Sequence record: MN850609.1 | Direction: 5' to 3' (one strand) | DNA: 64,000 bases | Origin: Escherichia phage dhaeg | Shown: one piece after another, positions 1,561-50,061 of the stretch | How the letters are laid out: every line of letters begins with the position of its first letter | Position numbering within the stretch: the first letter of the stretch is position 1 | Notes under the pieces: model-generated | Told to the model about the DNA's origin: nothing | The model's input: the letters and a program-made list of their open reading frames with translations, nothing else | The model's database searches: none | Program-made: the position numbers and the translations under genes

Positions 1561-2019
1561 ATGTCAGAAATTAATTCAGAAGTATTCATCCGCCGCAACA
1601 AATTACGTCGTCAGTTCGAAACCGAATTTCGTGAACTTAACGCGTCCATCAAAAAAGCCGCCATTAAGAGCGGTGTCCCAGCTTTCTTTATTAAGTACTC
1701 TAATCACTTGTTGGACCGTGCTATCCAACGTGAAATTGACGAAAAATATGTTTTCTCTTTGTTCAAGAAGCTCCATAATCATGTTAAAGAAATCCATGAA
1801 TTTTTAATCCAGGAGCCTCTTCCTGACATAGAATCTGAAATTGTCCCAGGTAAAGTGTATCGTCCACTGCGTCTCGAGATTACCGATAAAACCTTATGGT
1901 TGGGTATGACCGTAGATCGTAAACATCCTGATAAAGGATATTCATTAAAATGTCGTATGGCATTTGTTAATTCTAAACGTTTAGAAGGTAAAACCAGCAC
2001 GAAAGTAATCTATCTTTAA
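1561..2019 (+). CDS. regB: RegB endoribonuclease (cleaves GGAG in early mRNA Shine-Dalgarno regions)
   Basis: 152 aa; close match from memory to T4 RegB (EVFIRRNKLRR, HLLDRAIQREIDE, RLEITD); synteny upstream of tk. Confidence 0.85.
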   Translation: MSEINSEVFIRRNKLRRQFETEFRELNASIKKAAIKSGVPAFFIKYSNHLLDRAIQREIDEKYVFSLFKKLHNHVKEIHEFLIQEPLPDIESEIVPGKVYRPLRLEITDKTLWLGMTVDRKHPDKGYSLKCRMAFVNSKRLEGKTSTKVIYL

Positions 2020-5629: not shown

Positions 5630-5638
5630 CGTTTTAGT

Positions 5639-5667
5639 GTTTACATCCTCTAGGAACGTGATACTAT
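5639..5667 (+). promoter_or_regulatory. early promoter (GTTTAC / TACTAT)
   Basis: GTTTAC, 17-bp spacer, TACTAT, AGACCTATCAACT block. Confidence 0.65.
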
Positions 5668-5695
5668 AGACCTATCAACTAATGAGGAGAATAAA

Positions 5696-5926
5696 ATGAA
5701 AACCATCACCAACCTGAAAGTTATCGATATCGCTAAAGCTTCTAAAGCACTTAAAGTTAAAGCTGAAGATTTTGAAAACGCTACCTTTGCTATTATCGAA
5801 CAAAACGGTAAAGTAACTGGTTTAGAAGTTTATGAAGCTACTAAGTTCCAATCACAGCCTAAAATGGTTATTGGTACTAAATCTGTAGCTATCGAAAAAG
5901 CTTTGGCATTATTCGAAAAAATTTAA
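5696..5926 (+). CDS. hypothetical protein
   Basis: 76 aa; GAGGAG RBS. Confidence 0.5.
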   Translation: MKTITNLKVIDIAKASKALKVKAEDFENATFAIIEQNGKVTGLEVYEATKFQSQPKMVIGTKSVAIEKALALFEKI

Positions 5927-8906: not shown

Positions 8907-9102
8907 AGAAGAAATCAAGGTTTTCCTGTCATATGGAAGACCTCATAAAACCTGTCGTTGGTATCTTGAAGTAGTTTGTAGAGAAACCGGTAGACGAATC
9001 AATTTCAAGTACGTATGCAAGCCTACGTCTAAGCAGATAAGACGGTGTATTAACTGGGCTATCAATAATATCCGCTTCCATAATTATTGGAGCGCAATTT
9101 AG
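8878..9102 (+). CDS. hypothetical basic Cys-containing protein
   Basis: 74-aa ORF overlapping end of upstream gene; stop abuts terminator. Confidence 0.3.
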   Translation: MTTTTLITAKEEIKVFLSYGRPHKTCRWYLEVVCRETGRRINFKYVCKPTSKQIRRCINWAINNIRFHNYWSAI

Positions 9103-9124
9103 GAACCTTCGGGTTCCTTTTTTT
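9102..9124 (+). terminator. rho-independent terminator (GGAACC-TTCG-GGTTCC + T7), copy 1 of repeated cassette
   Basis: perfect hairpin plus T-tract; identical hairpin at about 43401 and 63909. Confidence 0.8.
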
Positions 9125-9143
9125 GGGTTCAGCACAAAAAAGT

Positions 9144-9172
9144 GTTTACAACCTAGTAGAGCATGTTATTAT
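9144..9172 (+). promoter_or_regulatory. early promoter (GTTTAC / TATTAT)
   Basis: AAAAAAGTGTTTAC, 17-bp spacer, TATTAT. Confidence 0.6.
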
Positions 9173-9209
9173 GGACCTATCAAATCTACTGAGTGAAACG
9201 GAGAATATA

Positions 9210-10200: not shown

Positions 10201-10542
10201 ATGTTCGAACAATTTAGTTATGACCTTATAAAAACAGAGTTGAAATACTCTAATGCCATGAAACAGTCTATTGAAGACTATGATAATGAATTTAAACACC
10301 AATTCGCCGAGAAGGTTTACAAAACCGATTGTGAAGAAGGAGACTACAAGAGACTGGCCTTGGCCGCGAAGACCCAAGCCTTAATAAATCTAGACCGTAA
10401 GCAGGTTAAGTTGGCAGGCGACTTCAGAGATGAACTCTGCGCCATCAGGAACGAATACCTTATTCGTATTAAACACCAACGGAAAGAGAACACCCAATCC
10501 GCATGGTTTAGTGGGCAAGCCGGTGAAAAAAGTTTTTATTAG
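10201..10542 (+). CDS. hypothetical protein
   Basis: 113-aa ORF. Confidence 0.45.
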   Translation: MFEQFSYDLIKTELKYSNAMKQSIEDYDNEFKHQFAEKVYKTDCEEGDYKRLALAAKTQALINLDRKQVKLAGDFRDELCAIRNEYLIRIKHQRKENTQSAWFSGQAGEKSFY

Positions 10543-10544
10543 TT

Positions 10545-10573
10545 GTTTACATCTCCAGTAGAAATGATACTAT
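10545..10573 (+). promoter_or_regulatory. early promoter (GTTTAC / TACTAT) with spacer/SD inverted repeat
   Basis: GTTTAC, 17 bp, TACTAT; CTCCAGTAG vs CTAATGGAG. Confidence 0.65.
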
Positions 10574-10599
10574 AGACCTATCAACTAATGGAGGTTATC

Positions 10600-11124
10600 A
10601 TGAACGCTAAAGATATTTTTTCACTGATTAATTTTAACAATGGTAATTTCAAATCTGAAAAACAAAGCAAGTTCTTTAACGACGTTGCTTGTGGTAATGA
10701 GATTACCGTATCTGGAGGAGAGATTTACAAAAGCCGTTGGAACTGGATTGTTATCATCGATTCAGTTGGTATTGTAGAGCTCTATAAAAACACTAACAAA
10801 AAACGTACTCTTCACTGGAGTCGTGAAACCAATCAAGCTTATCAAGCCGAGCGTAATAAACGTTTAATGCCTACTGAATCTGACCTGGCAAACGTTAAAT
10901 CAGATATCGCTTATTTTGATAACTTGATTGCCGAACAACAAGCGGTTATTGATAAGTTTGACGAAATCAAAGCTTGTAAAGAGATTCCTGAATTTATGCG
11001 GGAATCAGTAAACGAACAGTATGCCCTCACTTCAGGTCGTATCGAGCAGTACAAATCACAACGAGCTGAACGCCAAGCTCTGCTTCAGAAATTTGAAGAG
11101 CGTTTAAAGACGGTTCTCGCATAA
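10600..11124 (+). CDS. hypothetical protein with C-terminal coiled-coil tail
   Basis: ATG after GGAGG RBS; heptad-like C-terminus. Confidence 0.5.
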   Translation: MNAKDIFSLINFNNGNFKSEKQSKFFNDVACGNEITVSGGEIYKSRWNWIVIIDSVGIVELYKNTNKKRTLHWSRETNQAYQAERNKRLMPTESDLANVKSDIAYFDNLIAEQQAVIDKFDEIKACKEIPEFMRESVNEQYALTSGRIEQYKSQRAERQALLQKFEERLKTVLA

Positions 11125-11125
11125 A

Positions 11126-11150
11126 CGCTTTATACCAAGGATGGTATAAT
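11126..11150 (+). promoter_or_regulatory. candidate middle-type promoter (MotA-box-like CGCTTTA, 12 bp, TATAAT)
   Basis: GCTTTA motif 12 nt upstream of TATAAT. Confidence 0.35.
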
Positions 11151-11187
11151 GGTTCTAGGTTCTTAATTACTTACTGAGGAAATTATT

Positions 11188-12033
11188 ATGTCACAAGCAA
11201 TTAATCAAATTCGTTCTGAAGTTAAAAAAGTTGTTAAATTTGGTCGTATTCCTAGTTCTAAAGAAGTGGTTGAAAAGGTCCTATATATGATGTGGGACAA
11301 GTTCAATGTTTGTACTGTTAAAGATGACTTTATTAAAATCTTTGACAAGACTAAAGGTTCGTTTACGTTAGAAGACCGGGTCATGAAAACTCTTCGTAAA
11401 ACAGGTATGTTGTCTCGTGCTAATGCCAAAATTATTCTTAAAAATTATAACAAAGGCTACGACCTTTATGGTCGTTTAATCCCGGCGATGTCATTTGGTG
11501 AAGTTGTTCAAGACCTTCATGCCAACCAACGACGTTTACTGGCTCTTGGCGCTCGACTTGCAAAAGGTCTTGATAAACAAATGACATTTAAGACTAACGG
11601 TTCAGGTGATTGGATTATCTTTAATATTGTTAACCACCCTGGAAATGAAAATGAGTATACCATTTCGACTTTTAGTGGTTGTCAATACGACAACTGGAAG
11701 TTCCATCTGCGCTTGGCCCTGTCTGAATTAGAACAACACGGTGTTCTTAGTTTTGGTGATGCTGAAACTGGAGTAGGTCAGCGTATTAAACTTTATAAAA
11801 TTAAAGACCTGGCTGAAGAGCATTCAGAACAAGCTCCTAAAATGGAACCTGTACCAGTGCGCAGCAATGAGAAACATCAGGCCCAGATTGAGTATTTTAG
11901 CAATTTGCTTACTTGCTTGAATGTTACAATCCAACAACAAGATGATGAGATTTTCCGACTCTCTGGTCTTAATGCCAAAGCTAAGGCTGAACGCCAGAAA
12001 TATATCGATATCCTAAATCTTCTTAAGGATTAA
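11188..12033 (+). CDS. hypothetical protein with C-terminal coiled-coil tail
   Basis: 281 aa; conserved TIR ACTGAGGAAATTATTATG. Confidence 0.5.
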   Translation: MSQAINQIRSEVKKVVKFGRIPSSKEVVEKVLYMMWDKFNVCTVKDDFIKIFDKTKGSFTLEDRVMKTLRKTGMLSRANAKIILKNYNKGYDLYGRLIPAMSFGEVVQDLHANQRRLLALGARLAKGLDKQMTFKTNGSGDWIIFNIVNHPGNENEYTISTFSGCQYDNWKFHLRLALSELEQHGVLSFGDAETGVGQRIKLYKIKDLAEEHSEQAPKMEPVPVRSNEKHQAQIEYFSNLLTCLNVTIQQQDDEIFRLSGLNAKAKAERQKYIDILNLLKD

Positions 12034-12117
12034 TTATGGAATGGCTCGCTGTTCTTGGTTATGTAATCGTAGCCACGGGTGTTCTGTGGCTAATTTTCTC
12101 AAACATTATAGGTTAAT

Positions 12118-12333
12118 ATGGAAATCTTAGGTTTTATTCTCCTTTACTTTGTGCTAGGATTTATGACGACCTTTATCATTCATAAATCAGGTGATTGGAA
12201 TCCGATCGAAATTGAATCAAGCTATGATGCAGTATTCATTACACTAGTATGGCCCCTACTTTGGGTTGTTTTGGTCATTATGATGGTGTTTTGGCCTATC
12301 GCTAAATTCTATGAAAAATTATTTGGACTTTAA
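12118..12333 (+). CDS. small membrane protein
   Basis: 71 aa, two hydrophobic helices. Confidence 0.45.
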   Translation: MEILGFILLYFVLGFMTTFIIHKSGDWNPIEIESSYDAVFITLVWPLLWVVLVIMMVFWPIAKFYEKLFGL

Positions 12334-12334
12334 T

Positions 12335-13204
12335 ATGAACATTAAAACACGTAAAGAATACTCTATATACGACCATGACACAACTCGTCGTATCGCTATT
12401 GACAGGTTAGCCGACTTTGGTCATATTTGTAATGGTAATTATACTTATGGCGTAGGTCGTAAAGGAACTTATATTTCTTCTTTGAACGATTATTGCCGTC
12501 GCCCAGCCCACCTGTTTGGTGCAACATTACGAGCTAATATCAAAGACCTCTTGGCTACTGCAGGACGTATTTCTACGGTTCCTGTTAATATCAAGAATAT
12601 TAATTTTACGGCCCGTAACCTAGTCATTAATATTCTGTCTGACGGTATTCAAGTTCGTTTTCGCCCCACCTCAAAAGGTAATAAGGCCCTTCGTGAAGCA
12701 TTCGAAACCTTATTCAGAGAAGCAATGACTCGTATTAAGGCCGTAGAATCATATAAAGTTACAACCGATGAATATGCTGATTGTTCCGGGCAAGCCGATG
12801 CAGTGTATATCAGAGTTAAACTAACTAGCGAATATCTTTTATCTTATGCCCCTTATCAACCCCAACAAAAGGACCCACAAATGGAACGTCGTATCTCTGC
12901 AGTATCATGTGACAGCGTAGGCCAGTATGCAGCCTATGACAAATTCAAAACCACCGCTGTGCCTAGTCCATTCAATTCCGAACCGTATCATTGGAAAATT
13001 AAACCTGATAATTCTTTGGTTGTTACTAACCCTACGATGAAACCTATTGAGACCTATTATGCAGATAGCATTCAGGAATCAATCCATCGTTTAAATGGTC
13101 AGATTGAAGATGAGAAAAAGAGCATTCAAGACGTTCTTAATCGCATCAAGAATATGGAAAACCAGCGTGACAAGCTTCGCGCGGCACTATTAGCTCTAAA
13201 ATAA
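12335..13204 (+). CDS. hypothetical protein with C-terminal coiled-coil tail
   Basis: ATG immediately after upstream stop. Confidence 0.5.
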   Translation: MNIKTRKEYSIYDHDTTRRIAIDRLADFGHICNGNYTYGVGRKGTYISSLNDYCRRPAHLFGATLRANIKDLLATAGRISTVPVNIKNINFTARNLVINILSDGIQVRFRPTSKGNKALREAFETLFREAMTRIKAVESYKVTTDEYADCSGQADAVYIRVKLTSEYLLSYAPYQPQQKDPQMERRISAVSCDSVGQYAAYDKFKTTAVPSPFNSEPYHWKIKPDNSLVVTNPTMKPIETYYADSIQESIHRLNGQIEDEKKSIQDVLNRIKNMENQRDKLRAALLALK

Positions 13205-13205
13205 T

Positions 13206-13235
13206 GTTTACATCCAAGGACGGATGGAGTATAAT
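13206..13235 (+). promoter_or_regulatory. early promoter (GTTTAC / TATAAT)
   Basis: GTTTAC, 18-bp spacer, TATAAT. Confidence 0.55.
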
Positions 13236-13263
13236 CCTTTTATCAACTACTGAGGAGAATATC

Positions 13264-14274
13264 ATGACCCGTACTGAATACATCAATGCCTTTACTACGT
13301 ATATCACTGACAATACCCCTCCATTAACCCCATATGAGGTGATAGTTTCCAATATCAATAAATGGGTAGACCAAATTGATGAAGATTTGTCGCTGTATTT
13401 TAAATCTGAAATAGAAAAGATTGCAGGGCGTTTGTTTATCCCTGATATCATAGATACATTTAAAGGTTCTCGACTTCTTTCGCGGCTGGTTAATAAGGAT
13501 ATCCTTTCAGAGTTTGGCAAAGAGAAACACCCAGGTTCCAGCCACGTTGTTAGCTACCAATGGTTTGGTGATGTTTTAAAAAGCTATATCAAAATGAAAG
13601 GTATGGATCCTAGTGGTCTATTTCCACAGCGTTGGACTAGTGAATTTAAGGCTAACTCTGCATTAATTCTCAAAGCGGCCTCTAAAACCATAGTTTCTGG
13701 TGATTCCCGTACTATTCACCCTATGGCTAATTGCATGATTAAAACAAATAGTTATAAAGGAAAAGCAATTATTTCTGTTATTTGGTCACCTAATAGGAAA
13801 CCTAAAGATGACGCGGAAGTTGTAAAGTATCAAGATATTGCTTACGACACCTTGAATATTATCGAACAAGCCTTAGCTTTTATGGATACAGTAGAGAAAT
13901 ATGAGACTCAAGAAGTAAAACATTTCTATGGCTGGAAAGGATACGAGGTCTTAGTAAAAGTTCGCGAAATCAAATGCCATGTTCCAAAAACTGACGCTGA
14001 AATTTACCAAGAAAAATGTGAGGAAATTGTGAACACTGATAAAGAGCCTGCTACATTAGAAGACTTGATTAACGACTTGAATAGCCCTATCATGGCTCCT
14101 ACACCAATTACTAAATCCAAGTTACCGGAAATCGTTGCCTTAGAAAAAGCGTATAAAGATGCCCTTGCTATTAACAAAAAACTGACTGGCCAATATACCG
14201 CTGCCAAGAAACTTTGGGAAGAGTCTACCAATCGTTTAGACCGTCTTGAACAAGCTCTGGAGCTGTTGAAATGA
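13264..14274 (+). CDS. hypothetical protein with C-terminal coiled-coil tail
   Basis: start at ATG after promoter and GAGGAG RBS (listed ORF start spans promoter). Confidence 0.5.
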   Translation: MTRTEYINAFTTYITDNTPPLTPYEVIVSNINKWVDQIDEDLSLYFKSEIEKIAGRLFIPDIIDTFKGSRLLSRLVNKDILSEFGKEKHPGSSHVVSYQWFGDVLKSYIKMKGMDPSGLFPQRWTSEFKANSALILKAASKTIVSGDSRTIHPMANCMIKTNSYKGKAIISVIWSPNRKPKDDAEVVKYQDIAYDTLNIIEQALAFMDTVEKYETQEVKHFYGWKGYEVLVKVREIKCHVPKTDAEIYQEKCEEIVNTDKEPATLEDLINDLNSPIMAPTPITKSKLPEIVALEKAYKDALAINKKLTGQYTAAKKLWEESTNRLDRLEQALELLK

Positions 14275-14492
14275 AATATCAATTAGCCGATGATATCGAC
14301 CAAACTATTCCTGATTGGAATCAAATTATTAAAATTGTCGAACGTCGTGAAAAAGCTTCTAAGAACGTTCCTAACTGTCCTGAGTGCGGAACTGAACAAG
14401 TCCAGTTGACTCAATGGCGTCATAATCCGCTTCAGTATAAATGCCGTCATTGTAAACACCGATTTGAGCGAGATGAAAATGGCAAAGCGTAA
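14271..14492 (+). CDS. zinc-ribbon protein
   Basis: 73 aa; CPECG ... CRHCKH motif. Confidence 0.45.
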
Positions 14493-14715
14493 AGAATATG
14501 TAGAGGCCGCTGATAAGGCGGTCCGTGAACTTACTTTGGCTTATTATAAAGAGCACGGTAAATTTCCGGACAGTTATTCAGTATTGAAATCTGCTTTAAC
14601 TCGTTCGTATAATAATATACTATCTGATGTATATGATTTAAAATACGAACACCTCGAAAAATACGGAACAGAACTTGACCGTTCTGAAGCATTCAAACAA
14701 GTATTAGGAATTTAA
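14464..14715 (+). CDS. hypothetical protein
   Basis: 83-aa ORF, start ambiguous (ATGs at 14464/14473/14479). Confidence 0.4.
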
Positions 14716-14716
14716 A

Positions 14717-14980
14717 ATGTTTAAAGTTTATGGTTACGATTCAAATATTCACCGTTGTGTTTTCTGTGATAATGCCAAACGTCTACTTGATGTTAAGAAA
14801 CAACCTTACGAATTCATTAACGTGATGCCGGAAAAAGGTGTATTTGATGATAAGAAGATTGCTGAACTCTTGGCTGCTCTTGGTCGTGAATCTCAAGTAG
14901 GTTTGACCATGCCTCAGGTATTTGCTCCTGACGGAACTTCTATTGGTGGCTTTGACCAACTGCGAGCATATTTCAAATGA
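14717..14980 (+). CDS. nrdC: glutaredoxin (NrdC-like)
   Basis: 87 aa; CVFC active site; C-terminal GGFDQL typical of glutaredoxins. Confidence 0.75.
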   Translation: MFKVYGYDSNIHRCVFCDNAKRLLDVKKQPYEFINVMPEKGVFDDKKIAELLAALGRESQVGLTMPQVFAPDGTSIGGFDQLRAYFK

Positions 14981-15144
14981 TTGAATTATTGTTGGGTATT
15001 TTGTATCTTATCATCGGTATTGGTTATGCTAAGACCCTAGCTAAATTAGATGATTTCGGTGCAGGTGACTTTTGTTGGTGGCTGACGTCTATGATTTGTT
15101 GGCCTTTATTTCTGGTTGGTGCTTCATTCTGGAACTTTAAATGA
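14977..15144 (+). CDS. small hydrophobic membrane protein (unlisted ORF)
   Basis: 55 codons read by hand; ATGA overlaps at both ends. Confidence 0.35.
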   Translation: MIELLLGILYLIIGIGYAKTLAKLDDFGAGDFCWWLTSMICWPLFLVGASFWNFK

Positions 15145-15449
15145 TTGGATTAAATGAACAGACCATTTTTCTAGGTGATGGTACTGAAGACGACCTAGAA
15201 TATAAACTATACGAATATATGGTTTGGTTGGCTAAAGCAGAAGGTATTGATTTTGTTGTGGCTAACCCGTATGGCGAGAATACTGTTGTAATCGGTGGCA
15301 CTGCTTATGAAGTCCAATGGCAATACGTTGGGCTAGAATCTGAAGAATTTGAAGAAGATGAGCATGGTGATTGGCATCCGGTTGGCCCTTGGTATTGGGA
15401 AAACGGCGAGCCTGATTTTGAAGTAAGTAGTTGGTGGTGTGACCGTTAA
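15141..15449 (+). CDS. hypothetical acidic protein
   Basis: 102-aa ORF. Confidence 0.45.
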   Translation: MIGLNEQTIFLGDGTEDDLEYKLYEYMVWLAKAEGIDFVVANPYGENTVVIGGTAYEVQWQYVGLESEEFEEDEHGDWHPVGPWYWENGEPDFEVSSWWCDR

Positions 15450-15495
15450 GCCATGGTATGTCGCTCGGTGGGAAACTACCGAGCCAGAGGAACCG

Positions 15496-15525
15496 GTTTA
15501 CAACGATTCCGAAATAGAGTATAAT
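15496..15525 (+). promoter_or_regulatory. early promoter (GTTTAC / TATAAT)
   Basis: GTTTAC, 18 bp, TATAAT. Confidence 0.5.
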
Positions 15526-15565
15526 GAACCTTCAAACAATGATTTAATCGATATGGAGTTTGGAT

Positions 15566-15739
15566 ATGAGTACCAAAATTGAAGTTGGCCGTCACAAAGG
15601 CCGTCTGATTGAGCATTCGCTTTACGAGTTGTCGGATTCGGGTTCTTTACCTGACCTAGAATCCGATTTGATTAAAGCTGCTGCTGACTATATCCATTGG
15701 CTTGAAGCTCAACTTCGCTTTGCTGATAAGGCGTTCTGA
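15566..15739 (+). CDS. hypothetical small protein (unlisted ORF)
   Basis: 57 codons read by hand; GGAG RBS. Confidence 0.35.
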   Translation: MSTKIEVGRHKGRLIEHSLYELSDSGSLPDLESDLIKAAADYIHWLEAQLRFADKAF

Positions 15740-15815
15740 TGAAAACTTCTACTGTAATCTTGTGCTTATGGGGAATTTTTAATTTGGGTATGCTTGTTTA
15801 CTTGGTGGGTCAATT

Positions 15816-15992
15816 ATGAAAACTAAATTAGTCTATACTGAAAAGTTAAATGGTGACAAGGTCTGGAAACTTCTTATCAAAGGAAGTCCTACCGACCAGT
15901 TTATGGCCACCTGTATAGGGTTGTATACCCGTCCTACCAAAAAGATGATTCGTCAATTTAAACGGTTGCATCGCTCATTTTATAATGTTTAA
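15816..15992 (+). CDS. hypothetical small basic protein (unlisted ORF)
   Basis: 58 codons read by hand; coupled via 26-codon hydrophobic mini-ORF 15739-15819. Confidence 0.3.
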   Translation: MKTKLVYTEKLNGDKVWKLLIKGSPTDQFMATCIGLYTRPTKKMIRQFKRLHRSFYNV

Positions 15993-15998
15993 TAAATA

Positions 15999-16021
15999 CC
16001 CTTATCTAATAATGGTAAGGG
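15999..16021 (+). promoter_or_regulatory. RNA hairpin sequestering the gene 49 Shine-Dalgarno
   Basis: CCCTTA / TAAGGG stem with AAGGG SD in the 3' arm, 6 nt before ATG; TAATAAATA just upstream. Confidence 0.5.
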
Positions 16022-16027
16022 TTTATT

Positions 16028-16501
16028 ATGTTGCTGACTGGCAAATTATACAAAGAAGAAAAACAAAATCTTTATGATGCACAACATGGTAAGTGTTTGA
16101 TTTGTAAACGTGAATTAAACCCTGATGTTCAAAGTAACCACCTTGACCACGACCATGAATTGAATGGGCCAAAAGCCGGTAAGGTTCGTGGTTTACTATG
16201 TAATCTGTGCAATGCTGCAGAAGGACAAATGAAGCATAAGTTCAACCGTTCTGGTTTGAAAGGTCAAAACGTTGACTACCTCGAATGGTTAGAGAATTTG
16301 CTGGTCTATCTGAAAGCTGATTATACCGAAAATAATATCCATCCTAATTTCGTTCCTGATAAAACCAAAGAGTTCAGTAGATTAGGTAAGGAAGAAATGA
16401 TTGCTGAAATGCTTTCACATGGAATGACTTATAATGAATCTGACACAAAGAAACAAATGGTCGATTCATTTAAAAAACAACTGAGGAAATCGCTTAAATG
16501 A
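16028..16501 (+). CDS. 49: endonuclease VII (Holliday-junction resolvase, gp49)
   Basis: 157 aa; CLIC ... HLDHDHELNG ... CNLCN motif typical of T4 Endo VII. Confidence 0.8.
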   Translation: MLLTGKLYKEEKQNLYDAQHGKCLICKRELNPDVQSNHLDHDHELNGPKAGKVRGLLCNLCNAAEGQMKHKFNRSGLKGQNVDYLEWLENLLVYLKADYTENNIHPNFVPDKTKEFSRLGKEEMIAEMLSHGMTYNESDTKKQMVDSFKKQLRKSLK

Positions 16502-16610
16502 TTAATTTTTATGGCTACACATTCTATGCTTTAGCCGAATCAGTGAATGATGCTGTACGTCTTATGGGTGTTGAGTATCCTGCTCAATGGTTATTTGTTG
16601 TAACTAACAT

Positions 16611-16838
16611 GTGGGTTCTTTAATGAATAAATTTCGTAATGCAGTTTCTGATATCTTGGCCAATATTACATTTGTCTTGTTTATTGTGTGCCTTTTAATC
16701 CTAGTCATCCCATTTGGATTGCTGTTCGTTATTATTGGTGCGCTGAGTACTGAAAAGGGTCTCGAAGAGTCTGAGTTCGAAAAACGAATCCAGTCTGTCC
16801 ATAGTGTTATTTCTAAAATGATGAAGGTGAAAGAATGA
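16611..16838 (+). CDS. small membrane protein
   Basis: 75 aa, one long hydrophobic segment. Confidence 0.45.
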   Translation: MGSLMNKFRNAVSDILANITFVLFIVCLLILVIPFGLLFVIIGALSTEKGLEESEFEKRIQSVHSVISKMMKVKE

Positions 16839-17131
16839 AACGTTTTGAAGAATATGTAGCTACTGATTGGGGTGCCTGGGACAAGTTCGGTCAAGAATGG
16901 TATTTCCATGATTGCGACCTTAACCCGGAATTCTTTAAAGATAAGGAAGATGACCTCAAGGACATCTATGCTCTATCAGAGATTCACGGTATTAAACCTA
17001 CTGTCTACTTCTCTTTTGATGATATGGGATTCCTTATCCAGATTTACGTCCCGTATGGAACTAATGAAGACGAAGTTATCAAAACTTGGGACTACCAAGG
17101 AGTTATTTCCTGTGGACCAAAAGTTAACTAA
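16835..17131 (+). CDS. hypothetical acidic protein
   Basis: 98-aa ORF, ATGA overlap. Confidence 0.45.
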   Translation: MKRFEEYVATDWGAWDKFGQEWYFHDCDLNPEFFKDKEDDLKDIYALSEIHGIKPTVYFSFDDMGFLIQIYVPYGTNEDEVIKTWDYQGVISCGPKVN

Positions 17132-17429
17132 AATTGAGATTTACGGTATCCCTGAGACAGTCATGCGCTGTCCAGGGTGCATTGCAGTTCTATCGCTCCT
17201 AAATTCCCTTTCTATCCCACATACTTTCTATCCTGTGATTAACCAGACGCCGTCAGGCGCAGTATATGACAAGCCTCTTATAGTATCATTGGCCAAACGC
17301 GCCGGCTTCAAGAGCTTAGCTATACGCTATCCTGTCATCTTTGTTGATAATAAGAAAATAGAAAATATTCCTGCTTTTAAAGCACTTTTGATTGAACTTG
17401 GTTATGACCGAGATTTAATTGAAGATTAG
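17112..17429 (+). CDS. glutaredoxin/NrdH-like redoxin (CPGC), proposed GTG start
   Basis: C-terminal 105 codons of ORF 16872-17429 have a thioredoxin-fold pattern; AAGGAG 9 nt upstream of GTG. Confidence 0.35.
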   Translation: MDQKLTKIEIYGIPETVMRCPGCIAVLSLLNSLSIPHTFYPVINQTPSGAVYDKPLIVSLAKRAGFKSLAIRYPVIFVDNKKIENIPAFKALLIELGYDRDLIED

Positions 17430-17430
17430 T

Positions 17431-17459
17431 GTTTACTTCCTCTCCTCACGTGTTATAGT
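17431..17459 (+). promoter_or_regulatory. early promoter (GTTTAC / TATAGT) with 13-bp spacer/SD inverted repeat
   Basis: TCTCCTCACGTGT vs ACACATGAGGAGA. Confidence 0.6.
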
Positions 17460-17488
17460 CTATCCTATCAACACATGAGGAGAACATT

Positions 17489-17665
17489 ATGACTATCCAA
17501 GATAAAGAAATTAAAGTCCACCAGTATTATTCAATCAACGGCAAAGCTGTTCTAGTAACTGAAATATCTAGCCTGGACGTGTGGTATACCATAATTGACC
17601 TTAATATTAAAATGATTTGTGACCGTGGTGTATTTTGTTCGATAGCTAAGGAAATTAAATTATGA
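17489..17665 (+). CDS. hypothetical small protein (unlisted ORF)
   Basis: 58 codons read by hand; GAGGAG RBS; ATGA overlap downstream. Confidence 0.4.
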   Translation: MTIQDKEIKVHQYYSINGKAVLVTEISSLDVWYTIIDLNIKMICDRGVFCSIAKEIKL

Positions 17666-17916
17666 GCCTGAAATTACATTCAATGAAAAATGTCATCACC
17701 CTTAATCTGGATGATGAGCGCCTAATTTTTCTCACCGTCACTGATAAGAATATTGAAATTGCAAATGGTCCTAAGACTTATTGCTGCCCAGTGAAGAATT
17801 GGAAGCATGTAACCTTTTTGACCCTGGCCGACCGTCTGAAAGACCTTAAGTTGGATTTGGATATCAAAGATATCCAGTACATTAAAAATCTTATTGGATA
17901 CAAACTGTTGAGGTAA
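17662..17916 (+). CDS. hypothetical protein
   Basis: 84-aa ORF. Confidence 0.45.
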   Translation: MSLKLHSMKNVITLNLDDERLIFLTVTDKNIEIANGPKTYCCPVKNWKHVTFLTLADRLKDLKLDLDIKDIQYIKNLIGYKLLR

Positions 17917-17918
17917 CT

Positions 17919-18212
17919 ATGGGTAAAACTATCCGTCGTAAAGAATTGCCTGTAAAAGATTTTTATTATTCCGGACGCCGTAAAGCACCATACGGCGTAA
18001 GTCAGGAAAGAGTTGAAGAAAATATCTTCCGTTCTGACAAGTGGAAACGTATGCGTGGCGTTGATTCTGAAGTTAAGAATGAAATGAACCGCCAACTTCG
18101 TAAAGAAGTAAGAAAACTGAAAAAAGATGTTTACAGCGACGATGAACCTGATTACAATACTTCTCATCGAGTTGCAAAACGTAAATCAAACGAATGCTAT
18201 CGTTACAGCTGA
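17919..18212 (+). CDS. hypothetical basic protein
   Basis: 97 aa, Lys/Arg-rich. Confidence 0.45.
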   Translation: MGKTIRRKELPVKDFYYSGRRKAPYGVSQERVEENIFRSDKWKRMRGVDSEVKNEMNRQLRKEVRKLKKDVYSDDEPDYNTSHRVAKRKSNECYRYS

Positions 18213-18219
18213 GGAAAAT

Positions 18220-18351
18220 ATGAATATCAAACGTATGCTTTTTAAACAAGGATTATACACTTTAAATGTTGCTCCAAAAGGCGATACGACTAAGTGGTCA
18301 GTAAATGACTGGATTGAATTTATTGATGAAAACGGTAACTGGAAAATTTAA
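18220..18351 (+). CDS. hypothetical small protein
   Basis: internal ATG with GAGGAAAA RBS in ORF 18127-18351. Confidence 0.35.
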   Translation: MNIKRMLFKQGLYTLNVAPKGDTTKWSVNDWIEFIDENGNWKI

Positions 18352-18552
18352 ATGAATCCTGAATCTAAATTATCACAACGAATTGCTGAAGCCCGTCGTC
18401 AGTTCTTTGAAAATATGATAGCCCAAGGTATTGATGACGAAGTTTTTCTAAACTGGTTTTGGAATAACAAATATTCAAAATGCTCAGGAGCAATATTGAT
18501 ATCAGCCGCGATGATGTATGAAGGCTGGAAAGGCGCCAAAGCACAAAAATAG
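18352..18552 (+). CDS. hypothetical protein
   Basis: 66-aa ORF. Confidence 0.4.
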   Translation: MNPESKLSQRIAEARRQFFENMIAQGIDDEVFLNWFWNNKYSKCSGAILISAAMMYEGWKGAKAQK

Positions 18553-18581
18553 TTTACAAACTCTTGGGACCAGAGTATAAT
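18552..18581 (+). promoter_or_regulatory. early promoter (GTTTAC / TATAAT) with palindrome GGGACCA/TGGTCCC bracketing the -10
   Basis: GTTTAC, 18 bp, TATAAT; perfect 7-bp inverted repeat. Confidence 0.6.
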
Positions 18582-18620
18582 GGTCCCACGGATTATAAAT
18601 TTTAAACTGAGGAAATTATT

Positions 18621-18950
18621 ATGTCACAAGCTATTAAAAACGTACTGAACTCTTTCGCTTTCGATAAAGTTAACGAACTGATGAAAACCGGCTTTGTAAC
18701 TCCTCAGGTTCTTGACCAATGGGTTGCTGAACTGTTACCAATCATGCACTCTAAAGACCAAAAAATTGGTAAGAACGGTATTCGTGAAATCCTGGTTCAA
18801 TATATTCTCGACGAGTTTGATGTGGCCGCCTTTGGTGTCGAATCTAAAGCTTGGCAGCCGGGTGAAATCACAGACAAAACCATCCGTCGTATGAAGAATC
18901 AACGTAAGAAAAAATTCGTTGACCTGAAAATTGTTAAGGCTGCTAAATGA
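18621..18950 (+). CDS. hypothetical protein
   Basis: 109 aa; shares TIR and first codons (MSQAI) with gene at 11188. Confidence 0.5.
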   Translation: MSQAIKNVLNSFAFDKVNELMKTGFVTPQVLDQWVAELLPIMHSKDQKIGKNGIREILVQYILDEFDVAAFGVESKAWQPGEITDKTIRRMKNQRKKKFVDLKIVKAAK

Positions 18951-19195
18951 GTAATTTGCCTGAAGATGTATCGGTTATAATAGTCCTTAAAGCTTTAGCC
19001 GGTTTCCAACGTACCCCTATGATGAATAATAGCGAAACTATTATAAAAGCGGCTAATATGTTAAGTGGAAGTCATCGCGATTTCAGGATATTTCCTATAA
19101 GCTCTAAGACCACTTATATGAAAATGCCCGATCCTAAAATAGCTTGGGACGAAGGCATGACATTAAATGAATTTGAGGATTATTTAAATGATTAA
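18947..19195 (+). CDS. hypothetical protein
   Basis: 82-aa ORF, ATGA overlap. Confidence 0.4.
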   Translation: MSNLPEDVSVIIVLKALAGFQRTPMMNNSETIIKAANMLSGSHRDFRIFPISSKTTYMKMPDPKIAWDEGMTLNEFEDYLND

Positions 19196-19454
19196 AATAA
19201 AACTCTCTAATTACGATAAAAACTTGGAAATGATTGCTATGAAAGAAGAACTCCTGAATGATGTCCGCTTTACTGGTTATGCAGTTCAATTTAATAGTGA
19301 TGGGGTTCTCCAGATTGAGGGTGACCACTTTATTATTGAATATGAATTTAAACAGTACTGGCTATACGCTAAAGATGAGGTCGGCGGTATTGATTACGTT
19401 GATGAGTTTGATAATCTTGATGATGCACTAGAAGGAGCCCGATTCCTACAATGA
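19188..19454 (+). CDS. hypothetical acidic protein
   Basis: 88-aa ORF. Confidence 0.4.
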   Translation: MIKIKLSNYDKNLEMIAMKEELLNDVRFTGYAVQFNSDGVLQIEGDHFIIEYEFKQYWLYAKDEVGGIDYVDEFDNLDDALEGARFLQ

Positions 19455-19714
19455 CGCCTGTATCCATAACATTAGCTTATGAAGGCTTAGGATTTTTCTT
19501 AATAGATAACTATATGAATGTTGAGTTTATTTGCGGAGAGACTTCTGAAGTGTGGAAGTCTCATATTTCCAAATACAACCAATCCGAATATTTAGTCCTT
19601 TACCAACAATTCTGCCTTTATATTCAAAGCCAAGGATTTGAAGGAGCCCCTTCCTTCGAAGAGTTCAAAAAAATTCTTGAAACAGTATTTCAGGCTTATT
19701 GCTTACTCCGTTGA
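19451..19714 (+). CDS. hypothetical protein
   Basis: 87-aa ORF. Confidence 0.4.
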   Translation: MTPVSITLAYEGLGFFLIDNYMNVEFICGETSEVWKSHISKYNQSEYLVLYQQFCLYIQSQGFEGAPSFEEFKKILETVFQAYCLLR

Positions 19715-21151: not shown

Positions 21152-21313
21152 ATGGATTTTGATAAGATTAAATCTGACAAAAATGAGATGATACTTAAAT
21201 TTGAAGCTGCTCGTATTAAAGCGGAAAATGAAGGTACTATTACTTATAAGAAAATCAAGTTCAGGTCTTCTCATGAACCTCTGTATGGCGTATTAATTGG
21301 TAAAGGAGCTTAG
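21152..21313 (+). CDS. hypothetical small protein (unlisted ORF), preceded by two tandem 8-codon mini-ORFs
   Basis: 53 codons read by hand; stop lies in terminator stem. Confidence 0.3.
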   Translation: MDFDKIKSDKNEMILKFEAARIKAENEGTITYKKIKFRSSHEPLYGVLIGKGA

Positions 21314-21324
21314 GCTCCTTTTTT
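21303..21324 (+). terminator. rho-independent terminator
   Basis: GGAGC-TTAG-GCTCC plus T6. Confidence 0.7.
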
Positions 21325-21337
21325 GCTTTCTGAATGG
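21314..21337 (+). promoter_or_regulatory. candidate middle-type promoter for gene 47 (TGCTTTC box + TAAAAT)
   Basis: MotA-box-like motif 11 nt upstream of TAAAAT. Confidence 0.3.
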
Positions 21338-25733: not shown

Positions 25734-25771
25734 TTGGAGTATAATGTAAAAACAAACCTGAGGAAATTAAT

Positions 25772-26731
25772 ATGCTTACAGTAAATAATAATGAATTCAT
25801 GTTCGAACAGAAATATCGTCCAGGTACTTTATCTGAATGTATTCTGCCTGCTCATGATAAAGAAACTCTCCAAGCCATTGTTAATAAGGGCCTAATCCCT
25901 AACATTATCCTAGTCTCTGCTTCACCAGGCACAGGTAAAACTACCGTGGCTAAAGCATTGTGTGCTGATACAAATTCAGACATGTTGTTTGTTAACGGTT
26001 CCGACTGTCGTATTGATTTCGTTCGTAACGAACTTACTCGTTTTGCATCTTCTAAATCTATCGAAGGTAAACGTAAGGTAATTGTTATTGACGAATTCGA
26101 CCGTGCTGGTGTAGCTGAAGCTCAACGCCACCTTCGTTCATTCTTAGAGGCCTATTCCTCAAACTGTTCTGTAATTATTACAGCAAACAATATTGATGGT
26201 ATCATCGGTCCACTTCAATCTCGTTGTCGCGTAATTAAATTTGGTGAAGCCACTCCAGCTGACCAAACAGCCATGATGAAAGAAATGATTCATCGTGCTG
26301 TAGCAATTTGTAAAAACGAAAATATCGAAGTCGAAGACCTTAAAGTTATTGCTGCTTTAGTTAAACAAAACTTCCCTGACTTCCGTAAAACAGTTAACCA
26401 ACTAGACCGTTATTCCTCAAGTGGTAAAATCGATGCAGGCATTTTGAGTATTGTAATGAATACCAATTCGCCTATTGATGAAGTAGTGGCTGCACTGAAA
26501 GATAAAAACTTTAAAGAACTCCGTGCATTAGCTCCTCGTCATGTCAATGATTACGCCAACTTTATTATGGCACTGGCTAACGAACTCTATGGTAAATTGC
26601 CTGGACCGAGCATTGTTAGAATGTATGAAATCGTCGGTGAAAATAACCAATACCATGGTATTGCTGCTAACCCAGAAATTCACCTGACTTATCTTTTTAT
26701 CCAACTTGCTCTGGAGCTCCAATGGCTATAA
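25772..26731 (+). CDS. 44: clamp loader large subunit gp44 (AAA+)
   Basis: 319 aa; Walker A SPGTGKTT; near-identity recalled to T4 gp44. Confidence 0.9.
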   Translation: MLTVNNNEFMFEQKYRPGTLSECILPAHDKETLQAIVNKGLIPNIILVSASPGTGKTTVAKALCADTNSDMLFVNGSDCRIDFVRNELTRFASSKSIEGKRKVIVIDEFDRAGVAEAQRHLRSFLEAYSSNCSVIITANNIDGIIGPLQSRCRVIKFGEATPADQTAMMKEMIHRAVAICKNENIEVEDLKVIAALVKQNFPDFRKTVNQLDRYSSSGKIDAGILSIVMNTNSPIDEVVAALKDKNFKELRALAPRHVNDYANFIMALANELYGKLPGPSIVRMYEIVGENNQYHGIAANPEIHLTYLFIQLALELQWL

Positions 26732-27300: not shown

Positions 27301-27663
27301 ATGATTGAAATTACTCTGAAGCAACCTGAAGACTTCCTAAAAGTGAAAGAGACCCTGACTCGTATGGGTATCGCTAATAATAAAGAAAAGAAACTATATC
27401 AATCCTGCCACATTTTGCAAAAGCAAGGACGGTATTATATTGTCCACTTTAAAGAGATGTTGCGTATGGACGGTCGCCAGGTAGATATCGATGGTGAAGA
27501 CTACCAACGCCGCGATTCTATCGCCCAGCTTCTTAAGGATTGGGGACTTATTGATATTGTAGACGATTCTGAATTGTTCGAAATTACTAATAATTTCCGT
27601 GTCATTTCCTTTAAACAGAAAAATGACTGGGAACTATTGTCTAAGTATACCATTGGTAATTAA
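27301..27663 (+). CDS. regA: translational repressor RegA
   Basis: 120 aa; similarity recalled to T4 RegA. Confidence 0.85.
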   Translation: MIEITLKQPEDFLKVKETLTRMGIANNKEKKLYQSCHILQKQGRYYIVHFKEMLRMDGRQVDIDGEDYQRRDSIAQLLKDWGLIDIVDDSELFEITNNFRVISFKQKNDWELLSKYTIGN

Positions 27664-37549: not shown

Positions 37550-38973
37550 AAACTATTTTGGCTCAACTGCTAGGCAATAGTGATTATTTCACTAAGGTCT
37601 GGCCTTATATGAATGATTCTTATTTTGACCAGGGTCCGGCAAAGACCCTTTTCAAAGAAATAAAAAAACATGTCAATGAATATAATGCGGTGCCTTCTAA
37701 AAATGCTTTGAGTATTGCATTAGATAACAGCACCCTTTCAGAAGTTGAACACCAAGGAGCTAAAGAGCTTTTAAATTCTCTGAATGCAGGCCCTGAAGAC
37801 CAAGAATGGTTGGTTAAAGAGACAGAGAAATATGTTCAGAAGGCAGCGATGTATAATGCCACTTCAAAAATTATTGAAATTCAAACTAATGCCGACCTTC
37901 CGGTTGAGCAACAAAATAGAAAACTCCCAGGTATTGGTGCCATTCCGGATATCATGCGCGATGCATTATCGATTTGTTTCGATTCTGAATTAGGCCATGA
38001 CTGGATGGATGACTATGAAGAACGTTTTAAAAGTTATTCTGATAAAGCCCGTAAGGTTCCATTCCGTCTTAATATTCTGAATAAGATTACCAAGGGTGGC
38101 GCTGAGTTTGGTACTGAAAACGTATTGTTGGCAGGAACAAACGTAGGTAAGTCTCTTGGACTATGTTCATTGGCTGCTGATTACCTTCAATCCGGTTATG
38201 ATGTTCTTTATATCTCCATGGAGATGGCAGAGGAAGTATGTGCTAAGCGTATCGATGCCAACCTTCTGGATGTATCACTGGATGATATTGATGATGGTCA
38301 CGTCTCATGGCCTGAATATAAAGCTAAGATGGATAAGTGGCGTTCAACTGCTACTTTAGGTCGTTTAAAGATTAAACAGTACCCTACTGGTGGTGCTAAT
38401 GCCGATACATTCCGTGCATTATTAAACGAATACAAGCTCAAACAAAACTTTGTCCCACAGGTCGTTATCGTCGACTACTTGGCTATCTGTGCTTCATCTC
38501 GTACGAAAGTTTTCTCTGAAAACAGTTACGGATTGATTAAGATGGTTGCCGAAGAACTACGTGGCCTTGCAGTAGAGAAGAAATTATTGCTGTGGACTGC
38601 AGCCCAGACTACTCGTGGTGCGAATGTTGCGGCCGAAATCGATATGGCCGATATTGCTGAATCCTTTGGTATTGCACATACGGCAGACTTCATGTTAGGT
38701 GTGGTCGAGACAGAAGAGTTTGCTCAGATGGGTATGCAGATGGTTAAGCAGCTTAAATCTCGTTATGGCGATAAGAGCTACTACAACAAATTTAAGATTG
38801 GTGTTAAGAAAGGAAACCAGCGTTGGTATGAAGTTGAAGACGATTCTAACCCAGGTCCAGTGAACACCGTTCGTGAGGCTACAGGTGAAATGAACCGCCA
38901 AGCAGAGGTCAATCGCCAGTCGCGTGTTAATAGAAGCGATTTAGACGATTTAGCAGCATCTATCAAATTTTAA
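37543..38973 (+). CDS. 41: replicative DNA helicase gp41 (DnaB-like)
   Basis: Walker A GTNVGKS; similarity recalled to T4 gp41; GTG start after GAGGTGG RBS (listed ORF begins 37534). Confidence 0.85.
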   Translation: MVETILAQLLGNSDYFTKVWPYMNDSYFDQGPAKTLFKEIKKHVNEYNAVPSKNALSIALDNSTLSEVEHQGAKELLNSLNAGPEDQEWLVKETEKYVQKAAMYNATSKIIEIQTNADLPVEQQNRKLPGIGAIPDIMRDALSICFDSELGHDWMDDYEERFKSYSDKARKVPFRLNILNKITKGGAEFGTENVLLAGTNVGKSLGLCSLAADYLQSGYDVLYISMEMAEEVCAKRIDANLLDVSLDDIDDGHVSWPEYKAKMDKWRSTATLGRLKIKQYPTGGANADTFRALLNEYKLKQNFVPQVVIVDYLAICASSRTKVFSENSYGLIKMVAEELRGLAVEKKLLLWTAAQTTRGANVAAEIDMADIAESFGIAHTADFMLGVVETEEFAQMGMQMVKQLKSRYGDKSYYNKFKIGVKKGNQRWYEVEDDSNPGPVNTVREATGEMNRQAEVNRQSRVNRSDLDDLAASIKF

Positions 38974-38993
38974 GGAGCTTCGGCTCCTTTTTT
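38974..38993 (+). terminator. rho-independent terminator
   Basis: GGAGC-TTCG-GCTCC plus T6. Confidence 0.75.
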
Positions 38994-39002
38994 GTTTTAA
39001 GG

Positions 39003-39031
39003 GTTTACTTCTCCTGTAGGCATGATACTAT
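39003..39031 (+). promoter_or_regulatory. early promoter (GTTTAC / TACTAT)
   Basis: GTTTAC, 17 bp, TACTAT, AGACCTATCAACT. Confidence 0.65.
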
Positions 39032-39055
39032 AGACCTATCAACTTGGAGAACAAA

Positions 39056-39373
39056 ATGAAAACCATCGACTGTAAAGCAGAATATAAAGTGTATTATCAT
39101 GGAAGTTGTAGTGTTGCTAATATTGGTAATATGCTTTGTCCTCCTGAGGAAACAGGAGTTCTGTCTGAAACTGGTCGTAAGAAAAACCTAAATCGTGTGT
39201 TCTTTACTGAGGACATTGGTTTGGCTAAGATTTATGCTGGACGAGCTGCTCGTTCGGTGGGAGGAGAACCTCGTCTTTATCGTGTAATTGCTCCGGTAGA
39301 TGTGGTTTGTTTAAATGATACCAAAGGCGCTACGGTTTATCACGCTGAATGGGCCTTCTGTGAGGAAATCTAA
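39056..39373 (+). CDS. hypothetical protein
   Basis: internal ATG with GGAG RBS in ORF 39044-39373. Confidence 0.45.
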   Translation: MKTIDCKAEYKVYYHGSCSVANIGNMLCPPEETGVLSETGRKKNLNRVFFTEDIGLAKIYAGRAARSVGGEPRLYRVIAPVDVVCLNDTKGATVYHAEWAFCEEI

Positions 39374-43394: not shown

Positions 43395-43400
43395 TTATAA

Positions 43401-43422
43401 GGAACCTTCGGGTTCCTTTTTT
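43401..43422 (+). terminator. rho-independent terminator (GGAACC-TTCG-GGTTCC + T6), copy 2
   Basis: identical hairpin to those at 9102 and 63909. Confidence 0.8.
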
Positions 43423-43433
43423 CGTTTTTAATG

Positions 43434-45043: not shown

Positions 45044-45276
45044 TGAATTGGCTAACAAATATACCTACATCGGCATTAGATATAGACCGTAAACAAGCTC
45101 GTAAGGAAATCGAGCAAAAAAATATTCAGGCAAAAGCTCCTAAGATTATGACCAAGGCGCCGGAAATAAAAAGCTCTTATCAACCAAAAAGCTCTTATAC
45201 TTCATATACCCAATCCTTAACAGGCCAAGCTGCTGACATTGCAGTGTTTGGCGTCCCACTTGGTGTGTTTAAGTAG
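45043..45276 (+). CDS. hypothetical protein
   Basis: internal ATG at TAATG junction of ORF 45022-45276. Confidence 0.4.
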   Translation: MNWLTNIPTSALDIDRKQARKEIEQKNIQAKAPKIMTKAPEIKSSYQPKSSYTSYTQSLTGQAADIAVFGVPLGVFK

Positions 45277-45304
45277 TTTACACCTCCTCCCTTCATGTTA
45301 TAAT
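45276..45304 (+). promoter_or_regulatory. early promoter (GTTTAC / TATAAT)
   Basis: GTTTAC, 17 bp, TATAAT; ACCTCC in spacer complementary to downstream GGAGGT SD. Confidence 0.6.
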
Positions 45305-45328
45305 GACCTCTAAATCACTGGAGGTCAT

Positions 45329-46567: not shown

Positions 46568-46636
46568 ACCACCCGGTTTAATTGAAAGGCAAAGTCCTTG
46601 ATTCATTATACCGTCGAAAATTTAAAGCAAAAAAGT

Positions 46637-46665
46637 GTTTACTTTATTAAGCAACATGATACTAT
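46637..46665 (+). promoter_or_regulatory. early promoter (GTTTAC / TACTAT)
   Basis: AAAAAAGTGTTTAC, 17 bp, TACTAT, AGACCTATCAACT. Confidence 0.65.
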
Positions 46666-46705
46666 AGACCTATCAACTAATCGTCCGTAAGATGAGAAAA
46701 ATATC

Positions 46706-50002: not shown

Positions 50003-50006
50003 AAGT

Positions 50007-50035: not shown

Positions 50036-50061
50036 AACCCTATCAACATGAGGAGAACAAA

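Follow-up and report, generated by a model that had tools for sequence, protein, structure and literature searches.

How do two unrelated genes of one phage come to begin with almost the same 32 nucleotides? The question is raised by a 64,000-nt stretch of Escherichia phage dhaeg (record MN850609.1), hereafter the window, in which homologs of T4 nrdC.6 and 55.2 share a sequence that runs from the Shine-Dalgarno (SD) element through the ATG into the coding region. The phage is a Dhakavirus (JS98-like, T4-type), with 97% identity to CLB_P2 and dhabil across 9 kb. Genes gp45, gp44, gp62, regA and gp43 are arranged in the window as in T4, and rpbA, ndd (61417) and imm (30738) are likewise encoded. 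In T4, gp55.2 is produced from an early transcript; it inhibits E. coli topoisomerase I and, when abundant, is toxic (PMC4396842). An initial annotation had taken the shared sequence for a duplicated initiation module, proposed it as an operator of the translational repressor RegA, and suggested that it may mark a recombination junction. Here the two sites are compared with each other, with the other initiation regions of the window, and with their orthologs in other T4-type phages. The window holds 115 initiation regions, with starts assigned heuristically, which form 6555 start-codon-anchored pairs. Coordinates are given in Table 1.

Table 1. Positions of the genes, initiation regions, promoters and repeats considered in the window.
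Feature	Position	Strand	Description
regB	1561-2019		PF10715, E=2e-69
D1/D2 cassette copies	1503-1563, 5638-5698, 10544-10604, 17428-17491, 39002-39062, 46636-46696, 50006-50066, 59836-59896, 60558-60618, others		
Spacer-SD complementarity	1504-1563 (regB), 10545-10602, 17431-17491, 39003-39058, 45276-45331, 50007-50064, 60559-60616		
Putative middle-type promoter of nrdC.6	11127-11150	+	(c)GCTTTA 11127-11132, 12-nt spacer, TATAAT 11145-11150
Copy 1 of the 32-mer	11173-11204	+	SD GAGG, 8-nt A/U spacer, ATG, codons 2-6 of nrdC.6 homolog
nrdC.6 homolog	11188-12033	+	281 aa; N-terminus MSQAINQIRSEV; JS98 annotation; family Phage_T4_Y05B / PF26899 (precomputed annotation)
Early promoter of 55.2	18553-18581	+	sigma-70-type; TTTACA, 17 nt, TATAAT; 11/12 matches
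Hairpin around -10 box of 55.2 promoter	18566-18587	+	GGGACC (18566-18571)/GGTCCC (18582-18587); PeSL-like layout
Copy 2 of the 32-mer	18606-18637	+	SD GAGG, 8-nt A/U spacer, ATG, codons 2-6 of 55.2 homolog
55.2 homolog	18621-18950	+	109 aa, DUF7570; N-terminus MSQAIKNVLNSF; JS98 annotation
gp44 (clamp-loader) initiation region	25758-25774	+	CTGAGGAAATTAATATG; same SD class; ortholog of classical T4 RegA operator
regA	27301-27663	+	translational repressor, 120 aa; PF01818, E=7e-59
Initiation region of 81-aa ORF	60721-60737	+	CTGAGGAAAATATTATG; same SD class, one mismatch
ndd initiation region	61403-61419	+	CTGAGGAAATTGATATG; same SD class

A 32-nt Match at Two Gene Starts

The 32-mer ACTGAGGAAATTATTATGTCACAAGC(A/T)ATTAA occurs exactly twice in the window, both times on the + strand, and its copies are identical at 31 of 32 positions, the sole difference being the wobble base of codon 4 (GCA/GCT); 100 shuffles yielded no match. 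With both variants, the RNA form of the two sites reads 5'-ACUGAGGAAAUUAUUAUGUCACAAGC-3'. This pair has the longest run with at most one mismatch among all 6555 pairs (32 nt, the runners-up reaching 28, 22, and 21) and is the only one with 15/15 identity 5' of the ATG, where 21/6555 pairs reach at least 13/15. The 32-nt repeat is real and statistically exceptional. Ungapped likeness stretches to 45 nt at 84%, and GTATAATGGT is common to the -10 boxes of both genes, while the leaders between -10 box and SD show loose similarity only, the divergent part of the nrdC.6 leader at -31..-16 having no counterpart upstream of 55.2. The exact 23-mer core was found in Dhakavirus genomes only and at these two genes only; all six full-length genomes with a match have one copy at nrdC.6 and one at 55.2.

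The initial annotation had described the two genes as sharing a start that reads MSQAI in both and their proteins as otherwise unrelated, and this description was borne out. Both are real genes, BLASTP detected no relation between NrdC.6 and gp55.2 past the first 8 residues (E=74), and an hhalign comparison of the two family profiles aligned columns 1-8 only, with a probability of 2.3% (P=0.02). Hidden homology of the two proteins was rejected on these negative results.

The Strong Initiation-Region Class of the Phage

Shorter relatives of the repeat had been reported before the genes at 25772, 60735, and 61417. The statement holds exactly for gp44 (25758-25768, ATG 25772) and ndd (61403-61413, ATG 61417), each preceded by CTGAGGAAATT, but the copy before 60735 reads CTGAGGAAAAT, with one mismatch. 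With up to one mismatch allowed, CTGAGGAAATT has 12 matches where 2.1 would be expected. Every one is on the + strand, and inspection of the gene list places 10 of them immediately 5' of a start codon. At least 8 genes of this SD class in the window have TGAGGAAA.T...ATG as an invariant core. The consensus across the window's initiation regions is GAGGAAAATAAT, and the upstream 15-mer of nrdC.6 and 55.2 is close to it. The two initiation RNAs have predicted minimum free energies of -3.7 and -3.8 kcal/mol (z = +1.5 and +1.4), a weaker structure than that of shuffled sequences. GGAG, the RegB cleavage motif, is present at -18..-4 in 20/115 initiation regions, mostly of early cassettes, and GAGG without GGAG in 44/115; read from sequence, this split suggests two regulatory classes of ribosome-binding sites.

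Promoters and Leaders of the Two Genes

The 55.2 gene has an early sigma-70-type promoter, and no sigma-70 -35 hexamer was found 5' of nrdC.6. There, GCTTTA lies 12 nt upstream of TATAAT, an arrangement that we take to be Mot-box-like, corresponding to the MotA box of T4 middle promoters; having been read by eye, this promoter is less certain than that of 55.2. It is 100% identical in Gaprivervirus VR20. An inverted repeat, ATACCA/TGGTAT, overlaps the -10 box of nrdC.6, and the arms of the hairpin at the 55.2 promoter vary in a compensatory manner across genera (GGGACC/GGTCCC, GAGAG/CTCTC, GAGGAC/GTCCTC). Hairpins around the -10 TATAAT alone were also seen at other early promoters, at 51134-51156 (gene at 51193) and 61351-61373 (ndd).

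The nrdC.6 leader is peculiar in its own right. In the span compared between Dhakavirus and VR20 (L051), 11086-11245, the nrdC.8 end and the nrdC.6 promoter (11086-11157) are 97-100% identical, as are the first ~57 coding bases of nrdC.6, whereas the 31-nt leader between these near-identical flanks is ~50% diverged; the remainder of both genes stands at 70-85%. The contrast between leader and flanks has the appearance of a sharp mosaic or constraint pattern, for which no explanation was found. The Dhakavirus leader resembles that of Mosigvirus, with Gaprivervirus as the odd one out. In the metagenomic nrdC.6 proteins P0045, P0050, and P0057, an extension MVLGSYLL(T/I)EEII is spurious, representing translated leader and SD.

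Ancestry of the Two Starts in Other Phages

Within the nrdC.6 family, the proteins of Dhakavirus and Gaprivervirus start with MSQAIN, as does a 59% relative; a 43% relative has MSQVIN, and T4 has MSVVIN. CTGAGGAAAT is found 5' of the Mosigvirus nrdC.6-like gene. Within the 55.2 family, MSQAIKNVLNSF (MSQAIKNV) is kept in orthologs down to 56% protein identity (forty IMG/VR loci), the hosts of tblastn matches at that divergence being Klebsiella, Enterobacter, and Serratia, and ACTGAGGAAATT precedes the gene in distant orthologs (L019, L022, L023, L026, and L028-L030). Codons 2-5 of 55.2 vary synonymously among orthologs (TCA/TCT/TCC/TCG, CAA/CAG, GCT/GCA, ATT/ATC), and synonymous-codon entropy is 0.80 for codons 2-6 and 0.91 for the remainder of the gene. 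Judged from these alignments, what is conserved at the 55.2 start is the peptide and not the RNA. In Mizar (L053), the public annotation of the 55.2 homolog starts at a TTG 30 nt 5' of the conserved ATG, which is too far upstream.

Three other genera each offered a single genome in which the starts of both genes were readable, and in each of the three the starts are unlike. VR20 (Gaprivervirus) has TTGAGGAAAATAAT-ATG and MSQAI at nrdC.6 but CTGAGGAATATATC-ATG and MTASI at 55.2; the corresponding peptides are MSVVI and MTIQI in T4, and MSITS and MSTKI in Mizar (Mosigvirus-like). Across VR20, T4, and Mizar the starts of the two genes showed no co-variation, and the SD and spacers differ as well. 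Contigs of the deeper-branching nrdC.6 lineages P0045 and P0050 end just 5' of 55.2 and fall outside this comparison, and the ancestral states were read off a limited set of genera without formal phylogeny. Each Dhakavirus site lies 1-3 substitutions from its own orthologs. Polymorphism within Dhakavirus is locus-specific, with CAA/CAG in nrdC.6 only and GCT/GCA and ATT/ATC in 55.2 only, and in most Dhakavirus genomes the two sites match at 30/32 rather than 31/32. Nothing is therefore homogenising the two copies now. Ongoing gene conversion or concerted evolution was ruled out for the present by the locus-specific polymorphisms and the lack of co-variation between genera, and a recent duplication or mobile module by the ortholog comparison, in which each half is ancestral in its own family.

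The description of the shared sequence as a duplicated module did not survive these comparisons: both halves are ancestral in each family, the starts differ in other genera, polymorphisms are locus-specific, and the promoters are of unlike classes. A true duplication, recent or ancient, of the initiation module and first codons would make the two starts paralogous gene heads at a PeSL-type recombination junction (see below). We regard this as highly improbable. The 31/32 match, the best of all pairs, and the alignment of eight N-terminal residues between family profiles at P=0.02 would fit it, as would the PeSL layout at the 55.2 promoter and the variable gene content at the upstream boundary of nrdC.6, where T4 has an additional gene, nrdC.7, immediately 5'. 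It is opposed by the ancestry of each half and the unlikeness of the sites in other genera, by a Mot-box-like promoter at nrdC.6 against a sigma-70 early promoter at 55.2, by the hhalign probability, and by the order of 55.3 followed by 55.2, which is identical in JS98, VR20, and T4; neither reciprocal junction was found, moreover, in the 50,697 phage records described below. On present sequences the duplication reading is largely refuted.

Recombination Cassettes and Other Repeats

The PeSLs and PmSLs of T4-type phages are recurrent promoter/stem-loop/SD/ATG cassettes that mediate gene shuffling and the formation of mini-circles; their mapped crossovers fall in the interval from the -10 box to the ATG (Arbiol et al., 2010, PMC2839356; Comeau et al., 2014, PMC4122927). 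Both focal genes have the promoter and stem-loop parts of such cassettes: 55.2 with its sigma-70-like early promoter and GGGACC/GGTCCC, and nrdC.6, less certainly, with its Mot-box-like element plus -10 box and the ATACCA/TGGTAT repeat at the -10 box. Insertions, deletions, replacements or recombinant junctions of the kind tied to such cassettes were not seen: no chimeric junctions were found and the 55.3/55.2 order is conserved, nrdC.7 in T4 being the sole hint. Synthetic chimeric queries for the two reciprocal junctions (nrdC.8 promoter-55.2 and 55.3 promoter-nrdC.6) found neither junction in 50,697 phage records, and natural recombinants between the two repeats were rejected on that result. 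The suggestion that the recurrent sequences mark recombination junctions had been published as a general idea (PMC2839356, PMC4122927), and for this pair it found no backing in those records. As a 32-nt direct repeat 7.4 kb apart, the pair is a potential, so far unobserved, substrate for deletion of the nrdC.6-55.3 block or for a mini-circle. A search of 10500-19500 for Rfam families in the leaders gave no match at E<=1.

The window holds other repeated elements. The D1/D2 cassette family outnumbers the 32-mer: its members (~61 nt, GTTTAC...GATACTATAGACCTATCAACTAATGAGGAG...ATG) comprise early promoter, leader, and SD, and at least 7-14 copies lie 5' of + strand genes. In Dhakavirus they probably correspond to the PeSLs of RB49. 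The -35/-10 spacer of about 7 of 22 early-promoter cassettes is perfectly complementary to the SD of the downstream gene over 5-11 nt (at least 8 nt in four), and the complementary segments are unlike from copy to copy, for example ATCTCCTGTAG/CTACAGGAGAT, TTCTCCTCATG/CATGAGGAGAA, and ATCTCCATTAG/CTAATGGAGAT. By this complementarity, read-through transcripts would sequester the SD, while transcripts from the cassette's own promoter would not. Intrinsic-terminator hairpins are also repeated, AAGGAACCTTCGGGTTCCTTTTTT and AAGGAGCTTCGGCTCCTTTTTT occurring at 9099-9134, 43398-43433, and 63906-63941, and also at 21303-21329 and 38972-38998. At 9096-9193 and 63903-64000, a terminator is followed directly by an early promoter in a 98-nt repeat with 80% identity.

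The Two Sites as Candidate RegA Operators

On about 30 mRNAs, RegA and the ribosome compete for binding; the RegA sites, unstructured and rich in A+U, contain the AUG as well as a 5' A tract (Uzan and Miller review, PMC3014915). T4 operators include those of gene 44 (AAAUUAUGAUU) and rIIB (AAAAUUAUGUAC), the T4 SELEX consensus is aaAAUUGUUAUGUAA, and RB69 RegA selects UAA repeats instead of the T4 motif (PMC3014915). RegA of the window aligns end to end with T4 RegA (1REG) and has the RNA-binding residues K14, T18, and R21 and the equivalents of W81 and F106 (residues from PMC3014915). Both focal sites fit the general description, being A+U-rich and predicted to be unstructured, with the AUG included and a 5' A tract. 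Scored against the SELEX consensus, which is that of T4 RegA and may not be that of Dhakavirus RegA, the nrdC.6 and 55.2 sites (GAAAUUAUUAUGUCA) are the top two of 115, at 12/15, and the next group, at 11/15, includes ndd, imm, and the ORFs at 60735, 6471, and 5940. Orthologs of known T4 targets score 9 (gp44), 9 (gp45), 10 (rIIB), 10 (rpbA), 8 (regA), and 6 (rIIA). The score has little predictive power because these targets lie at 6-10 when the most common score in the window is 7. Nucleotide conservation of an operator-like kind, beyond what the protein needs, was not found, either in codons 2-6 of 55.2 or in the SD and spacers, which vary among genera.

That both sites are RegA operators, their near-identity maintained as RegA recognises GAAAUUAUUAUGUCA in competition with the 30S subunit, is possible but in our view doubtful. 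The arrangement would give a coordinated shut-off of nrdC.6 and of the toxic topoisomerase I inhibitor 55.2, and is compatible with independent ancestry of the sites. It would accord with a phage-encoded regA that retains its RNA-binding residues, with the fit of both sites to the A+U-rich, unstructured description as the best SELEX matches, and with their membership in the SD class of gp44, a classical target. The sites have GAGG without GGAG, so RegB would not inactivate them, and a shut-off would make sense given that T4 gp55.2 becomes toxic at high levels (PMC4396842). Weighing against this reading are the barely discriminating SELEX score, the preference of RB69 RegA for UAA repeats, given which the T4 motif may not apply in Dhakavirus, and codons 2-6 of 55.2, which carry no extra nucleotide-level constraint across orthologs. 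Nor are the sites kept as a pair in other regA-encoding genera. We found no published evidence that nrdC.6 or 55.2 is sensitive to RegA, and the 55.2 paper (PMC4396842) does not mention RegA. It is unlikely that the two Dhakavirus starts are held identical through the first codons as the highest-affinity operators of the phage's RegA or some other initiation-region-binding factor. If they were, shut-off of gp55.2 and NrdC.6 would be coupled and the operator would extend into the first codons (AUGUCA...), as it does in the T4 SELEX consensus. As the best SELEX-like sites in the window, the pair would make good test substrates for the RNA specificity of Dhakavirus RegA.

Chance, Selection, and the Preferred Explanation

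Position-specific residue frequencies at the 115 N-termini predict 0.22 pairs sharing residues 2-5 per window and 1.3 per 275-gene genome. Two were observed in the window, MSQAI and MIIET (6877 and 55601). The genes of the latter, 6877 and 55601 (rIIA), are unrelated and share 11 identical bases 3' of the ATG, a natural control for chance N-terminal coincidence. Because ~1.3 such sharings are expected per genome and two pairs are seen in the window, the MSQAI coincidence is unremarkable by itself. The chance of upstream identity was judged from the empirical distribution over the 6555 pairs; a position-independent PWM null was dropped because SD positions are correlated, which made its probability meaninglessly small. 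For 15/15 upstream identity combined with the pentapeptide coincidence, the expectation is roughly 1e-3 per window under independence, and therefore something beyond pure chance probably contributed. Both sites may have been drawn to one selective optimum, a trans-acting factor may act on both, or a short patch may have been converted.

Short-patch gene conversion would have occurred in the Dhakavirus stem lineage, one site copying the other's spacer via pre-existing microhomology (CTGAGGAAAT...ATGTCACAAGC) and thereby raising ~12/15 upstream identity to 15/15. Such an event seems quite unlikely. In its favour, independence makes an identical 15-mer improbable, only Dhakavirus has the exact 23-mer core, with two copies per whole genome matched, and T4-type phages recombine at short repeats inside promoter-SD cassettes (PMC2839356). 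Dhakavirus and Gaprivervirus, moreover, diverge most in the nrdC.6 leader, amid almost identical flanks. However, that leader is Mosigvirus-like in Dhakavirus, Gaprivervirus being the outlier, and its divergent part at -31..-16 is not the one found at 55.2. Conversion is also unnecessary when each site lies 1-3 substitutions from orthologs elsewhere, and the locus-specific polymorphisms speak against homogenisation still in progress.

Both halves were seen to be ancestral, the two sites do not co-vary, their polymorphisms are locus-specific, and little RNA structure is predicted for them. These observations are consistent with the explanation that we favour as the probable one: two ordinary initiation regions, each inherited independently, came to share 32 nt by convergence or coincidence, and no cassette was duplicated. 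Under convergence, the upstream half (-15..-1) would be the near-consensus (A/C)CTGAGGAAA(T/A)T followed by an A/U spacer, with GAGG 8 nt from the AUG, which both genes bear in common with gp44, ndd, imm, and others of the same initiation class; a strong initiation region of this kind would keep the mRNA unstructured and give efficient 30S binding. The downstream half (+1..+17) would reflect an old N-terminal peptide conserved at the protein level in each family, MS(Q/V)(A/V)IN in nrdC.6 and MSQAIKNV in 55.2, such that in Dhakavirus both starts happen to read MSQAI with common A/T-ending codons. That the last 3-4 spacer bases became identical is, we infer, due to selection toward one optimal initiation region and not to chance alone. 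A striking 32-nt repeat across two start codons can therefore arise without duplication, given a very uniform strong ribosome-binding site and the same N-terminal pentapeptide kept by two proteins. The finding matters little beyond annotation and is explained by ordinary, already known features.

Comparison With Known Systems

Both sites resemble T4 RegA operators in being A+U-rich and unstructured, in overlapping the AUG, in their 5' A tract, and in their 12/15 SELEX match, and regA is encoded in the same phage, 9-16 kb downstream of the two sites. As putative operators they differ in lacking RNA-level conservation across orthologs, and the T4 operator motif itself contains too little information to predict targets. 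With PeSL/PmSL cassettes they share a promoter (early at 55.2, Mot-box-like at nrdC.6), a stem-loop at the -10 box, an SD, and a downstream start codon. In contrast to those cassettes, the two sites are strongly alike only from -15 onward into the coding region, their promoters belong to different classes, and no recombinant between the two sites was found; the typical cassettes of the window (D1/D2) form another, much more repetitive family. From the T4-type consensus strong initiation region, with SD GAGG/GGAG and an A/U-rich spacer, there is no essential difference: here too GAGG stands 8 nt from the AUG, the spacer is A/U only, and the mRNA is unstructured. What is unusual among members of this strong-initiation class is that nrdC.6 and 55.2 also match at 14 of the next 15 coding bases.
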